Both the position numbers and the translations under genes were made by a program. Of a stretch of DNA of 64,000 nt, positions 5,189 to 22,321 are shown piece by piece. Numbering within the stretch: the first letter of the stretch is position 1; every line of letters starts with the position of its first letter. The notes under the pieces were generated by a model. It was not told the origin of the DNA. It did no database searches and saw nothing but the letters and a program-made list of their open reading frames with translations. Source of the DNA: Escherichia coli (GTDB lineage Bacteria > Pseudomonadota > Gammaproteobacteria > Enterobacterales > Enterobacteriaceae); assembly GCF_050920415.1 (NCBI RefSeq), contig NZ_CP169309.1; one strand, given 5' to 3'.

Positions 5189-5203
5189 TTTTTACCCAGA
5201 CAT

Positions 5204-5309
5204 AAAAAAAACCCGGCATAGGGGACCGGGAAGAGGATAGTCTGCCGTCTCCAGACTAATAAACCGTTATAACACTCCCTGTTGGCACGGGAAACTTTGT
5301 GCTCTCAGT
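5204..5309 (-). ncRNA. gadY: GadY small RNA, antisense to gadX 3' region
   Basis: Reverse complement reads ACTGAGAGCACAAAGTTTCCCGTGCCAACAGGG...CCCGGTCCCCTATGCCGGGTTTTTTTT: terminal hairpin plus U-run on minus strand; recognised GadY sequence; ends approximate. Confidence 0.8.
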
Positions 5310-5555
5310 AAGTTAAATATAACTTTTACTGGAGATAAGATCAGCCATTTTTTTATAAACATAAGCTATGCGCTGTGTGAAAATATATTCTTCTTGCATT
5401 TTCTTATTATCAATTAACTGTTATGTCAAACTACTTTTTGGATAACTTTTGGTCCTACCAAATATGGCAGTTTATGCACGAAGAAGCGGTCTGGCATCAT
5501 TTCATTAGTATACTGAAATTGAAATAATCGCAGTAATGAAATATAAGGGATAGTC

Positions 5556-10942: not shown

Positions 10943-11280
10943 TTTAGTCCCTGAAAATTCTTGAGATATAACGGTTCTTTAAATTGCGCGCGAGGAGAGG
11001 TATGAGGGATTTACAGACCAGCGGCATAGTGGGGTTGTCAGCCAGTAAGATGGGATGCAAGCACAGTGATCGACATGGTGAGGTCAACGACAAAAAAAAT
11101 GTTGCCGTTCTGCCAACAGTTCCTGCCAGCATTCGGGCAACGAAGGGTTCTACTGGTGGATACACATACCAGGGGAATAAAGTCGTTTTCGCCTCTCCTT
11201 TAGTCATCACCGGGGATAATGAAATCAGCATCTGCATCCCTCTTCATGCCTGCCATCATTTTCAGTTAATTATGTCCTGA

Positions 11281-16459: not shown

Positions 16460-17683
16460 TTATGGGGTTATATTCTGGTAATGATTTGATAAGCGAATTC
16501 TTTTGCCAGTTGGTATTTCTATTTCCACCCCATAATTTATAGTTTTTTCATCAGGTAGCGATCTCTTTAAATAAGGTGCGTATGACATTTTTTTAGGATG
16601 AAACGTATCGTGTTGAAATATTTCGAATTGATATTCAGACATTTCTGCCCATGTTTGAATTTTATTGTATCGGGAGAGTGTCGTAAAGGCTTTAACTTGC
16701 TTATAACATTGTTTTTGGAATTCTTGCTGATATTTTATTATGTCGTTGTATGAAAGATTATTTACCCTGGTTTCTAATAATTCTATTATTGTCGAAGCAA
16801 TTTCCGCTTTTGCTCTTAAAGAGTTGTCATTAATGGTTAATAATGTTGAAAATAAACCATTGATTTGTTTGTCAACATATTGTTCATCTTTATGTAATTT
16901 TGTGATAGGGTTTTCCTTATGTGAAAAAATAGTATCAAATAAATTTGCGTCAGTGAAGTTTACATTAAGTAGATCTTCGAAATAAAACCTTGACAAGGTT
17001 AGAACGAACCCGGACAGGTCCTGTCCTGTCATATTGAAATCAATAAAGTTGGTTCCAGCAAAGACTTTCATCCTGTTTTCATTTTTACTGTGCTCAATAT
17101 ACAACCTTGTCATTTTTTGGTACAAGCGTTGAATATCTTTTATATCAGTTGGTAGATCAGTTCGTTGCCCAGAAAAATTTTTATTTTCGGAAGAAACGGT
17201 TTGGACACTGAATCTTACTGGTATTCCCTCTTCTACGAGAATTTTAGTTATGATTGGCTTATTGGGCTTAGGATTAAAGACAACAATGATTTTAGATTCA
17301 GAGTTTTTATTCTTTTCGTATCTAATGTTATTAATCTGATTAAGTATTGATTGTGTCTGTTGCGTAAGTGGTGTCGAACTTATCGTTTCAATGTTATTAA
17401 TAAGTTTTACAAGTTGAGCCACAACTTTTGAGTAGTCTGCATTTGTATATGTGGTGTTCGTGTGGCACGCATTAATTTGTTGGAGTTGTTGTTTCGCTAA
17501 ATCAAATTGTTCAGCGTTATATCCTTCTTCAGACAATGAAAAATTAACGGGTTGCTGTTCTTCCTGATTATCACAAGGCCACATCGGTGTGTTTGGTGTT
17601 TTAACATTGTCGGTATCTGTTGTGCGGTTATAAATATCGCCGTGATATGTGTTTATCATACCTGGGGTAAAGTCAATTGACAT
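16460..17683 (-). CDS. yhiS: YhiS, uncharacterised protein, 407 aa; intact here (IS5-disrupted pseudogene in K-12 MG1655)
   Basis: Single 407-aa ORF in a strongly AT-rich block; position between slp and ars genes matches yhiS; no IS5 sequence present. Confidence 0.8.
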
Positions 17684-18263
17684 AACATTCCTTATTGTTC
17701 ATCTATTTCGCTAAATTTTTGCAAATCGGAGAATTAGAACAGGAATGGATTTTCTTCTACGCGGAAATAAACACAATGCGTCATATCTTCCTGATATAAT
17801 TACCTTTAACTTCCCTTTCATTTCCACCCGGTAATATTTGTGTATAAAAAAAGGGCAGTGATAGTATCGTAAAGGAAAACATTAACAACTATCAAAAAGC
17901 GCTCATTTTAAAAAGTTATGATGTTCTCCGATAGTGTGTGAAGTGATATTTTTGTGATGTTTTAGATGTGTAATAATGAACCAGGTTGAAGTGTATTTAA
18001 AAATGTGTTGTATTGGCGACTGAAATCTGCCCTTTAAAAGGGGGGATAGCACTGAGACAAAGAGGCATTGCTTCTCCGATAAAATGTCAGAGAAGCATGA
18101 TTGCGTGGTGATTGTCGATTGATGACTTACTGACGGATCCGTCATCATTCTCAAAGCATTAGTTAAGTTATTTGTGATTTTTAAGGATTATCCTATCTAT
18201 GATTTTCTACTCAGAAGGATAAGACACTCACAATGCTCCTTATAGTTTACTGCTGGCATCTAT

Positions 18264-19277
18264 TTAAAATAGCATTTGAGTCAAATAGCCCATCAAGATA
18301 GCCATACCTAAGATAACCGTCAGGAATGCAACTATCATCGGTATTCTGAACATTGATTTAAGTAATATCACTTCCGTCAGGCTTGCTCCGGCACTGCCGA
18401 TGATTAATGCCATTAATGCTCCCGGACCCATTCCTTTTGTCATCAGAACAGATGCCAGAGGGATAACCGCCTCTGCCCGGATATACAGCGGGATTCCGAC
18501 AACGGCGCTCAATGGGATGGCGAAGGGATTATCTGCCCCTGCATGAGCGGCAATCCACTCTGAGGGAATAAAGCCATAAATAAAAGAGCCTATTAATACC
18601 CCTAACAAAAGATATGGCAGTACATCTTTAAACTGTTGCAACGCATCTTTGGTGGCTAGTTTTATGGGATTAATACTTACCACAGCTTTGGTACTGCAAC
18701 AGTTTACTACAGGTTTCTCAATGGCTTTAGCCGCTGGACTACAGCAACTCACTTTTATTGGCGTATAAGTCGTCCCCGGCGAAGTTTTGGCTGGAGAGCA
18801 ACAATTTGCTGATGAGCTTTTACTGGCAATGATATGACGTTCAAATCTCAGAGAATCCAGGATAATACTGGCAAGTACGGAGACGCCGGCGGCGATAATC
18901 GCGTACAACAAGGTAACTTTCCAACCAAAGGTCACCCACATTAACCCGACGATAATGGGATTAAGTAACGGTGAAACAAATAAAAAAGTGAGAGTCGGAC
19001 CAAACCCGGCTTTCGCTGACAACAATCCACGTAGCATGGGTATTGTCGAGCAACTACAGAACGGGGTAACGGCTCCCAACAGAGCAGCCAGGAGATAGCC
19101 TCTCCCTTTTCTGGCCCCCATCATCTGCTGGATTTTATGGTCTGGCACCTTTTGTCTTATCAGGCTGACACCGGCACTAATCACTATAAACAGCAAAGAA
19201 AGCTCGACGGCGAGAAACACAAACATCTCTGCGGCATCTTGCAGCATCGCAAGCCAACTACTCATAAGTAACCTCAT
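18264..19277 (-). CDS. ArsP-family (DUF318) permease, putative organoarsenical efflux permease, 337 aa
   Basis: Polytopic membrane protein with TPFCSCSTIP motif (ArsP signature TPFcSCSxxP) and Cys-rich central loop (CCSP...SCCSP...NCCS); not present at this position in K-12. Confidence 0.75.
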   Translation of the reverse strand: MRLLMSSWLAMLQDAAEMFVFLAVELSLLFIVISAGVSLIRQKVPDHKIQQMMGARKGRGYLLAALLGAVTPFCSCSTIPMLRGLLSAKAGFGPTLTFLFVSPLLNPIIVGLMWVTFGWKVTLLYAIIAAGVSVLASIILDSLRFERHIIASKSSSANCCSPAKTSPGTTYTPIKVSCCSPAAKAIEKPVVNCCSTKAVVSINPIKLATKDALQQFKDVLPYLLLGVLIGSFIYGFIPSEWIAAHAGADNPFAIPLSAVVGIPLYIRAEAVIPLASVLMTKGMGPGALMALIIGSAGASLTEVILLKSMFRIPMIVAFLTVILGMAILMGYLTQMLF

Positions 19278-19290
19278 TGAATAAAACTAT

Positions 19291-19347
19291 ATTTCCAGAA
19301 TAATCGAAATAAAGTTCAGATCAAGATATTTCTGGTATTATCGAAAT
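19291..19347. promoter_or_regulatory. Two similar 20-bp dyad sites (ATTTC-N10-GAAAT) in the divergent promoter region; candidate ArsR-family operators
   Basis: atttccagaataatcgaaat (19291-19310) and atttctggtattatcgaaat (19328-19347) between divergent genes. Confidence 0.45.
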
Positions 19348-19372
19348 ATCAACCAGACAGAGGGGGTGACAC

Positions 19373-19693
19373 ATGCAATTGGAAGAGGTCGCTAAGGCAC
19401 TGAAAGAGTTAGGTCATCCGACCCGTTTGTTCATATTTAAGCATCTGGTCAAAGCGGGGGAACAAGGTTTGCCGGTCGGTGAGTTGCAAAAGCAGCTTGG
19501 GATACCCGGCTCTACACTCAGTCACCATATTTCAGCACTGGTATCGGTAGGGTTGGTCAAACAAAACCGTGAGAGTCGGACGCTGATGTGTGTTTCGCAA
19601 TACGCAATGCTGGAAGCGATAATTGAATTCTTACGTGAGGAGTGCTGCGTAAACAGCAAAACAGATAGCGAAGGAGCCACGAAGAACAAATAA
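19373..19693 (+). CDS. ArsR/SmtB-family transcriptional regulator, 106 aa, with C-terminal vicinal cysteines (Cys91-Cys92)
   Basis: Winged-helix core (LSHHISALVSVGLV); lacks the helix ELCVC metalloid site of canonical ArsR; divergent from the ArsP-like gene. Confidence 0.75.
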   Translation: MQLEEVAKALKELGHPTRLFIFKHLVKAGEQGLPVGELQKQLGIPGSTLSHHISALVSVGLVKQNRESRTLMCVSQYAMLEAIIEFLREECCVNSKTDSEGATKNK

Positions 19694-19713
19694 GGGGGCA
19701 TATCCCCCTATAG

Positions 19714-21495: not shown

Positions 21496-21849
21496 TTAAC
21501 TACAAATATTCTTACTGTCTGCGGAACAATTTTGTCTGGCGAGGTTACGGACAATCACCTGAACCTTTTCCTGTTCGCATCGCCAGGCCTGCTCAATAAT
21601 TTTCGCCGCCCATGCTGGAATATGCGGCGATAAACGGTAATGAACCCACTTTCCTTGCTTGCGGTCCAGCAATAGCCCACTTTCACGCAGTAATGCCAGA
21701 TGGCGGGAGATCTTGGGCTGCGACTGATCGAGGGCAGTGCACAGATCGCAGACGCATAACTCTCCCAGTTCGCTGAGCAGTAAAACGATGCCCAGACGGG
21801 TTTCATCGGCAAGAATTTTGAAGAGTTGGATGGGTAACAGAAATGACAT
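21496..21849 (-). CDS. arsR: Arsenic-responsive repressor ArsR, 117 aa
   Basis: ORF track 117 aa; ELCVCDLC metalloid-binding motif; recognised. Confidence 0.95.
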   Translation of the reverse strand: MSFLLPIQLFKILADETRLGIVLLLSELGELCVCDLCTALDQSQPKISRHLALLRESGLLLDRKQGKWVHYRLSPHIPAWAAKIIEQAWRCEQEKVQVIVRNLARQNCSADSKNICS

Positions 21850-22002
21850 ATTGCGCTCCTGATTGTTGCACTTAGTGTCTCTCTTCGAAGCGGATAAGTC
21901 AAAAACATATATGTTTTAACGAATGCATAAGTGCAAAAGTAAGTAATAGGTGTGAATTTTGAGTTGGGTATTCATTTGAAAGGAAGGCTGAATCAGGATG
22001 TA

Positions 22003-22088
22003 AAAAAACCGACTTTGCGTCGGTTTTTTACTCTTCAGCCAGAGTTGGTGGCTCTGGCTGGAGTGAGAATGCCCACATCTAACGGTTC
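22003..22088 (-). ncRNA. agrA: AgrA small RNA (dinQ-antisense family); boundaries approximate
   Basis: First copy of a roughly 120-bp repeat; minus-strand intrinsic terminator hairpin ccgactttgcgtcgg plus U-run at 22002-22029. Confidence 0.55.
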
Positions 22089-22235
22089 AATACTATTAGC
22101 CAGTGGCTAACATTGCAAGCGTTAGCGATTTCTTCAGCTGGCGAAGGGACAGTTTGCTATACATGGTGGTGAAAGAGGATTGATATACTTTCATCGGGTC
22201 GCTGCCGTACCAAGCCTTGTCCGAATCCGGACGTA

Positions 22236-22321
22236 AAAAAACCGACTTACGTCGGTTTTTTTACTCTTCAGCCCTGAGTTGGTGGCCCTGGCTGGAGTGA
22301 GATAGCCATCATCTAACACAT
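22236..22321 (-). ncRNA. agrB: AgrB small RNA, antitoxin-type antisense regulator of dinQ; boundaries approximate
   Basis: Second repeat copy; minus-strand RNA is complementary to a segment in the dinQ 5' UTR (22483-22515); terminator hairpin 22238-22263. Confidence 0.55.

Follow-up and report, generated by a model that had tools for sequence, protein, structure and literature searches.

Paired inverted repeats between divergent genes for an ArsP-family permease and an ArsR/SmtB-family regulator in Escherichia coli: candidate operators of a widespread cassette

Introduction

Operators of the SmtB/CzrA type, described as 12-2-12 operators, are imperfect hyphenated inverted repeats of about 26 bp that lie over core promoter elements. 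In the divergent smtA-smtB region there is more than one such repeat between the regulator gene and its target, and repression is relieved by a ligand that binds at helix α5 or nearby.

Among the arsenic-responsive members of this family, AfArsR of Acidithiobacillus ferrooxidans (PDB 6j05) represents the type 2 As(III) site, in which a vicinal cysteine pair at the end of α5 is joined by a third cysteine, Cys102, to complete an S3 site. SpArsR of Shewanella putrefaciens 200 is described (PMC11868830, PMC13236881) as keeping only the pair Cys101/102 of the AfArsR site and as answering methylarsenite (MAs(III)) and not arsenite. On the efflux side, the closest described systems are ArsP, the organoarsenical efflux permease of Campylobacter jejuni (TC 2.A.119), and SO_0444, which serves Cu/Zn efflux in Shewanella; both belong to PF03773, as does the permease described here. 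Permeases of the SO_0444 type are needed for tolerance of Zn/Cu and are induced by Cd/Cu (PMC3219624; bioRxiv 10.1101/072470; PMC10092412).

Here we analyse a 64-kb stretch of Escherichia coli DNA (64,000 nucleotides, "the window") in which an ArsP-family permease gene and an ArsR/SmtB-family regulator gene diverge from a short intergenic region containing two inverted repeats, and we ask how this arrangement compares with the systems above.

Results

The cassette and its genomic setting

The window spans the Escherichia acid-fitness/ars region, with dctR, slp, a yhiS-like ORF, the permease and regulator genes, arsC-arsB-arsR, the AgrB sRNAs and gor. Rfam matches at gathering score to GadY, ES205 and two copies of AgrB (5199-5312, 11092-11163, 22000-22082 and 22233-22316) confirm this gad/ars/gor chromosomal context. 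The neighbouring arsR, at 21496-21849 next to arsC/arsB, is of the canonical kind and carries the ELCVCDLC motif; the regulator studied here is a separate protein, encoded beside the permease gene and near this canonical arsR. The yhiS-like ORF is intact (407 aa, 16460-17683, minus strand) and has no match in Pfam or NCBIfam, and the approximately 580 bp between it and the permease stop codon contain no ORF longer than 83 aa.

Between arsC and the yhiS-like gene, the permease and regulator genes together make up an indel of about 1.7 kb (approximately 18000-19713). Of 5,426 complete E. coli genomes, about 2,220 (about 41%) have it; K-12-like genomes do not. A copy of the cassette with about 84% identity, including both dyads, is carried at loci L001 and L089 of our survey and by at least 636 plasmids in PLSDB. 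Most carriers are conjugative plasmids of Escherichia and Salmonella, many are from pigs and chickens, and the cassette copy is often flanked by IS26, IS1 or Tn3 remnants near resistance genes such as mph(A). On the Citrobacter freundii plasmid p1_140542 (L090), the cassette lies between arsR-arsC-arsD and a set of molybdopterin/4Fe-4S genes that look like the remnant of a respiratory arsenate reductase, with Aeromonas-type IS elements around it. In Yersinia frederiksenii (L085, 648-1151), a GNAT acetyltransferase gene stands between arsC and the permease gene; its product could be an ArsN-like arsinothricin-resistance enzyme.

The permease translation matches Pfam ArsP_1 at 180.4 bits over residues 13-334 (cut-off 32), placing it in that family, and contains a CSC motif (VTPFCSCS) and three CC pairs (NCCS, SCCS, NCCS) in its central loop. 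Its scores against the NCBIfam models for SO_0444 (NF033936; 115.8 bits, cut-off 300) and SaoE (90.1 bits, cut-off 325) are too low for membership of either. RefSeq names the gene simply "permease" and annotates the 1002-nt form, which begins at the ATG at 19265. This start, preceded by GAGG, is conserved across 13 aligned loci; the start of the longest ORF, the ATG at 19277 (ORF 18264-19277), is not conserved in the same alignment and was rejected. The intergenic region is therefore 19266-19372. At the other end of the cassette, the GC-rich hairpin between the convergent regulator and arsC genes is likely a bidirectional terminator. Features are collected in Table 1.

Table 1. Features of the cassette and its intergenic region (window coordinates)
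Feature	Position	Strand	Basis
Permease gene, PF03773 (ArsP_1), 333 aa	18264..19265	-	ORF, Pfam, conserved ATG
Shine-Dalgarno GAGG of permease gene	19272..19275	-	6 nt before ATG 19265; purine-rich block conserved
Dyad 1, permease-proximal predicted operator	19291..19310	.	Motif, extended arms, conservation
Predicted -10 TATTCT of permease promoter, positions 9-14 of dyad 1 read toward the permease gene	19297..19302	-	Layout read by eye
Predicted -35 TTGATC of permease promoter, 3 nt from dyad 2	19319..19324	-	Near-invariant TCAA
Dyad 2, regulator-proximal (autoregulatory) predicted operator	19328..19347	.	Motif, perfect arms, conservation
Predicted extended -10 TGGTATTAT of regulator promoter, inside dyad 2	19333..19341	+	Conserved site positions
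Shine-Dalgarno GAGGGGG of regulator gene	19360..19366	+	Read from sequence; GAGG conserved in alignment
ArsR/SmtB-family regulator gene, 106 aa	19373..19693	+	Pfam, NCBIfam, PDB match, AF2 model
GC-rich hairpin AGGGGGCATATCCCCCT between convergent regulator and arsC genes	19693..19709	.	Terminator-like score on both strands

The regulator is an ArsR/SmtB protein with three invariant cysteines

The flanking regulator is a true ArsR/SmtB protein. It scores above the cut-off against Pfam HTH_20 (PF12840; 53.8 bits, cut-off 27) and HTH_5 (PF01022; 29.4 bits, cut-off 22) and against NCBIfam HTH_metalloreg (NF033788; 61.7 bits, cut-off 55). An AF2 model (pLDDT 90.3) places helices at residues 3-13, 16-31, 35-42, 46-58 and 77-91 and strands at 62-67 and 70-75, giving the order α1-α2-α3-α4-β1-β2-α5 of the ArsR/SmtB fold, and the top Foldseek matches of this model are all ArsR/SmtB proteins.

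For a comparative survey we scanned one genome per species with an alignment of the regulator, which gave 80 loci (L003-L082) from Escherichia, Aeromonas, Vibrio, Photobacterium, Shewanella, Endozoicomonas, Thalassotalea, Pseudovibrio, Desulfobulbus and others; nine further loci, the window included, brought the screened set to 89. Throughout this set, Cys73 in strand β2, Cys91 and Cys92 at the end of helix α5, and the sequence STLSHH in the recognition helix are invariant (89 of 89 in each case). None of the 89 family members has a cysteine between residues 21 and 72, which excludes a type 1 site of the kind found in the R773 and E. coli chromosomal ArsR proteins (Cys32/34/37, CVC(D)LC in α3). 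A persulfide sensor of the BigR/SqrR type was likewise rejected, on a score of 38.3 bits against NF040642 (cut-off 155) and the want of a conserved cysteine in α2, where residue 20 is cysteine in only three of the 89. A further cysteine follows the CC pair within 10 residues in 38 of 89 relatives, most often as CC-x4-C. The tail of the window regulator, VNSKTDSEGATKNK, contains no cysteine, and this protein is therefore without a third C-terminal one. NCBIfam also returned a weak match of the regulator to CmtR.

Two dyads stand alone in the window

The sequence-only reading of this DNA had picked out two 20-mers with ATTTC-N10-GAAAT symmetry, centred 37 bp apart between divergent genes. Both are present where it placed them: dyad 1 (atttccagaataatcgaaat / ATTTCCAGAATAATCGAAAT) on the permease side and dyad 2 (atttctggtattatcgaaat / ATTTCTGGTATTATCGAAAT) on the regulator side. 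The distance between their centres agrees with the sequence, and the genes on either side, permease on the minus strand and regulator on the plus strand, are indeed divergent, with both dyads inside the 107-bp intergenic region. The motif has exactly two matches on both strands of the 64-kb window, compared with a mean of 0.20 in 100 dinucleotide-preserving shuffles of the window, none of which contained two or more. No third copy was found in the window even when 2 mismatches were allowed, and control of the arsRBC operon by these operators was rejected on this ground.

The symmetry of both elements extends past the 20 bp recognised earlier. Dyad 1 has arms of 11 nt (19285-19295 and 19306-19316) with 91% complementarity, and dyad 2 has perfect arms of 8 nt, GATATTTC at 19325-19332 and GAAATATC at 19343-19350. 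The two units can also be read as a 23-nt direct repeat with 83% identity, spaced 37 bp.

The motif follows the regulator gene across Proteobacteria

Across the 80 scanned loci, we counted 81 exact copies of ATTTC-N10-GAAAT in the 18.4 kb that lie no more than 230 bp upstream of a regulator ATG and 9 in the remaining 600 kb, an enrichment upstream of the regulator of about 290-fold. Even among the nine stray copies, seven are directly upstream of a co-directional permease gene (L026, L040, L049, L068, L069) or of a glutathione-synthase gene (L082). The site proximal to the regulator starts 38-60 nt (mostly 41-46) before its ATG in 67 of the 89 loci, including loci that have no permease gene. 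Since the distance is nearly fixed, and is kept in the absence of the permease, the proximal site follows the regulator gene. This linkage holds in gamma-, alpha- and deltaproteobacterial loci whose neighbouring genes are unrelated.

Loci lacking a nearby permease gene generally have one site only. A second site accompanies the divergent permease gene, with equivalents of dyad 1 in about 45 loci, and is also seen when the permease gene sits elsewhere in the locus. Most loci that fail the strict pattern retain a recognisable degenerate copy in which the right half, TATCGAA, is kept; a recognisable site is absent in about five of the 89. In the alignment of 13 intergenic regions from enterics, Aeromonas and Desulfobulbus, mean column identity is 0.90 for dyad 1, 0.97 for dyad 2 and 1.00 for the arms of dyad 2, compared with 0.70 for the spacer and 0.55-0.62 for the outer flanks. 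A frequency matrix built from 57 unique proximal sites reads AT-ATTTC-TRN-TAWTAT-CGAAAT-ATA. The spacing between dyads varies among taxa (37, 39, 48-52, 25 and 63 bp). A distribution of this kind marks a cis-element evolving together with the regulator and the presumed permease promoter, and the shuffles together with the conservation across genera rule out chance or a low-complexity artefact as the origin of the dyads.

Several loci differ in layout from the window. The Vibrio loci (L017-L023, L033, L081) have intergenic regions of about 230 bp with three sites, one about 39 nt before the regulator ATG and a pair 50 bp apart beside the permease gene, whose -10 is a perfect TATAAT and whose leader is long, at about 58-66 nt to the permease start. 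In Moritella sp. PE36 (L082, 4455-4590), a gene for a eukaryotic-type glutathione synthase (PF03917/PF03199) is preceded by the same operator pair at a spacing of 50 bp, and TTGACA-17-TATATT runs between the two sites and overlaps them. This enzyme is also encoded divergently from the regulator gene in L043 and L053; on the E. coli plasmid L001 its gene is found 3 kb away from the cassette. Apart from this recurrent glutathione synthase, the neighbours in the approximately 30 permease-less loci are heterogeneous and uninformative.

Each dyad is predicted to contain a -10 element

Both promoter assignments given here were made from conservation, and both score below the threshold of a consensus scan. 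For the regulator, an extended -10 is predicted inside dyad 2, composed of TG at 19333-19334 and TATTAT at 19336-19341, with transcription predicted to start near 19348. Read in the direction of the regulator gene, T9, A10 and T14 are present in 56 of the 57 unique proximal sites, and on the opposite strand in none of the 57. As these are the best-conserved positions of a -10 element, the site appears to have a -10 signature, TAnnnT, embedded in the direction of transcription only. A TTGCAn hexamer is found 17 bp upstream in Vibrio loci with a single site; the -35 of the window's own regulator promoter is weak.

For the permease, the layout is TTGATC-16-TATTCT (score 8/12), with a predicted start of transcription near 19290. 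The -10 is found in the same register as TATACT in Serratia, Yersinia and Salmonella and as TATTCT in Citrobacter. The TCAA of the -35 (read as TTGA on the permease strand) hardly varies, with identity across the 13 loci in three of its four columns, and TTGAC or TTGAT follows the upstream operator by 3-6 nt in nearly all of 56 paired-site modules. Toward the permease, the order in such modules is upstream operator, 3-6 nt, TTGAC/TTGAT, spacer, downstream operator. Where the operators are spaced by 48-52 bp, the -10 is formed as TAT+ATT or TAT+AAT at the edge of the downstream operator, and where they are spaced by 37-39 bp, as in the window, it falls at the operator centre.

The intergenic region is thereby predicted to be pseudo-symmetric about 19319, with two back-to-back promoters that each have their -10 inside their own dyad, and with leaders of about 25 nt that each contain a GAGG ribosome-binding site. 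Two other pairs returned by the consensus scan, TTGAAT-16-AATAAT (plus strand) and TTGATA-18-TATCTT (minus strand), are not conserved outside Escherichia and were set aside as the main promoters; they are possible secondary promoters.

Discussion

Probable operators of the adjacent repressor

The comparative pattern supports the proposal of the sequence-only reading that the dyads serve as ArsR-family autoregulatory operators for both genes, because the motif tracks the regulator at a nearly fixed offset, recurs with the permease promoter and overlaps both predicted -10 elements. On these comparisons, the repressor encoded at 19373-19693 very probably has its cognate operators in the two dyads. 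Each dyad would be bound over about 22-26 bp by a single dimer, which would recognise the core ATTTC-N10-GAAAT with TATATTTCGATA as the ideal half-site. With the extended -10 of the regulator's own promoter in dyad 2, the -10 of the divergent permease promoter in dyad 1 and the permease -35 in the 17-bp spacer adjoining dyad 2, occupation of both sites would exclude RNA polymerase from both back-to-back promoters; that each dyad overlaps a predicted -10 is the reason to expect binding to block both. The predicted outcome is autorepression together with repression of the efflux permease, until a thiol-seeking ligand at Cys91/Cys92 (the end of α5) and Cys73 (β2) relieves it.

The spacing between the dyads varies among taxa while the sites themselves are constant, so the 37-bp distance is not functionally constrained and cooperativity is not implied. 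A model of strict 37-bp phasing or cooperative looping was rejected on this evidence, which argues for two operators that would be bound independently over a phase-dependent cooperative complex.

Could the dyads belong to some other factor, or act in RNA? AT-rich promoter dyads can serve several proteins, and these might be bound by a global regulator or another transcription factor whose gene lies elsewhere, while the adjacent ArsR-type protein recognises another sequence. We regard this as very unlikely. The motif keeps its fixed distance to the regulator ATG in proteobacterial loci whose neighbours are unrelated, its enrichment upstream of that gene is about 290-fold, the invariant recognition helix is matched by invariant arms, and the 64-kb window has no other copies of the motif. 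Still less credible is the idea that the dyads form hairpins in the 5' leaders, as attenuators or stability elements, or are merely a duplicated promoter sequence to which no protein binds. The minus-strand transcript does fold somewhat better than shuffled sequences (z = -2.3), but the plus strand does not (z = -0.38), the dyad region has no match in Rfam, and from the predicted starts most of each dyad would be upstream of or at +1. Moreover, the arms are invariant and do not covary, and what would be the loop is conserved at the centre as a -10 hexamer.

The inducer

For the repressor that is proposed to bind the dyads, a trivalent arsenical, possibly an organoarsenical, is the leading candidate for the ligand, although that the inducer is an arsenical at all seems to us to fall a little short of probable. 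The CC pair (Cys91/92) aligns with Cys95/96 of AfArsR, and the extra cysteine that follows the pair in 38 of 89 relatives recalls the three-cysteine site of that protein. The cassette also adjoins ars genes in three arrangements: they stand on its regulator side in Escherichia and Citrobacter and on its permease side in Yersinia and Salmonella, and on the C. freundii plasmid it is upstream of arsR-arsC-arsD and beside arr-like genes. Next door, arsRBC is already under a canonical ArsR with ELCVCDLC, so that it would be reasonable for a second sensor to serve organoarsenicals. The permease is of the ArsP Pfam family, and its place beside ars genes makes it a candidate organoarsenical exporter.

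Other findings point away from an arsenical. No ars genes lie within 4-8 kb of the marine and Aeromonas chromosomal loci, the distance being 8 kb for Aeromonas, Shewanella and Vibrio, and when the loci were searched by tblastn with E. coli ArsB, ArsC and ArsR, only the enteric ones proved to have ars genes. The absence of ars genes from marine loci, the relationship of the permease to a Cu/Zn exporter and the glutathione synthase of Moritella would fit any thiol-seeking toxicant. We take seriously, as a possibility that is well short of probable, that the inducer is another thiol-seeking metal (Cd(II), Zn(II), Cu(I), Pb(II) or Hg(II)) or thiol-reactive stress, and that the cassette works as an efflux module for soft metals in general. 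Among curated families, those nearest to the permease are SO_0444 (Cu/Zn efflux) and SaoE, most marine loci are without nearby ars genes, the same operator pair precedes the eukaryotic-type glutathione synthase gene in Moritella, and the three invariant cysteines could make up a CmtR-like S3 site, CmtR being also the weak NCBIfam match of the regulator. Many of the 636 cassette plasmids, moreover, come from pigs and chickens, which are given Cu/Zn feed supplements. Against a soft metal, the best match of the regulator in both sequence and structure is the As(III) sensor AfArsR with its CC pair aligned, many relatives have CC-x4-C, the cassette stands beside ars genes in three arrangements, and the characterised SO_0444 systems use regulators of the MerR type and not of the ArsR type.

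Rather unlikely as a whole, in our estimation, is a more far-reaching proposal: that Cys73 in wing strand β2 of one subunit and Cys91-Cys92 at the end of α5, possibly across the dimer interface, make up a sensing-site layout not previously described in ArsR/SmtB proteins; that the repressor commands a small regulon of the ArsP-family permease and, in some taxa, a eukaryotic-type glutathione synthase; and that the two-gene cassette, now present on hundreds of conjugative plasmids of livestock-associated Enterobacteriaceae, is a possible unrecognised determinant of organoarsenical or soft-metal resistance, co-selected with antibiotic resistance.

Implications

If the repressor binds the dyads as predicted, the analysis provides a precise operator consensus, TAT-ATTTC-N10-GAAAT-ATA, and a map of the promoters. 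It also defines, for a very widespread ArsR/SmtB subfamily that is uncharacterised, a regulon open to testing and a shortlist of three cysteines for work on the ligand. Because 41% of complete E. coli genomes have it, as do at least 636 plasmids, many of them of pig or poultry origin, the cassette may be a neglected arsenical or metal resistance module with relevance to the co-selection of antibiotic resistance. The compact repressor/operator pair could also serve in biosensors.

Comparison with known systems

Of the described regulators, AfArsR comes nearest, as both the best sequence match (E = 2.7e-10) and the best fold match (TM 0.82-0.90), at an identity of only 29-30%. It is a homodimeric winged-helix repressor that regulates its own gene, as we propose for the window regulator, and its vicinal cysteine pair at the end of α5 has its counterpart in Cys91/92. 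However, Cys102 of AfArsR has no equivalent in the window regulator, and where Cys73 is invariant in β2 AfArsR has a tyrosine.

The likeness to SmtB/CzrA-type systems lies in the DNA. Here too, imperfect inverted repeats overlap predicted promoter elements in a divergent intergenic region, but the half-sites of SmtB/CzrA operators are of the TGAA type, whereas those found here correspond to TATATTTCGATA, and sensing in those proteins relies on His, Asp and Glu residues, whereas the candidate residues here are all cysteines.

The window regulator resembles SpArsR, as that protein is described, in having the CC pair without a third C-terminal cysteine. The two were compared by description, with cysteine numbering 10 residues apart, and the window family differs in the additional invariant Cys73, which could act as a third ligand. 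The site of ArArsR (Cys41/80/82; PMC11868830) has a layout different from that of the window regulator and was rejected as a model for it.

ArsP, SO_0444 and the window permease have in common a CSC motif, discussed in bioRxiv 10.1101/2022.07.06.499078, and each is a one-gene efflux module that has a metal(loid) regulator of its own. The regulator of SO_0444 is of the MerR/ZntR type (PMC3219624), whereas the one adjoining the window permease is of the ArsR type.

On sequence criteria, then, the regulator is placed outside type 1 ArsR and BigR and the permease outside SO_0444 and SaoE, and the definition of the AfArsR site applies to the regulator only in part. In the searchable literature, neither a report of the operator sequence together with ArsR nor an experimental characterisation of this subfamily was found. 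The module itself is of the usual ArsR/SmtB repressor-operator design, an ordinary type of metal(loid) switch that challenges no current concept.
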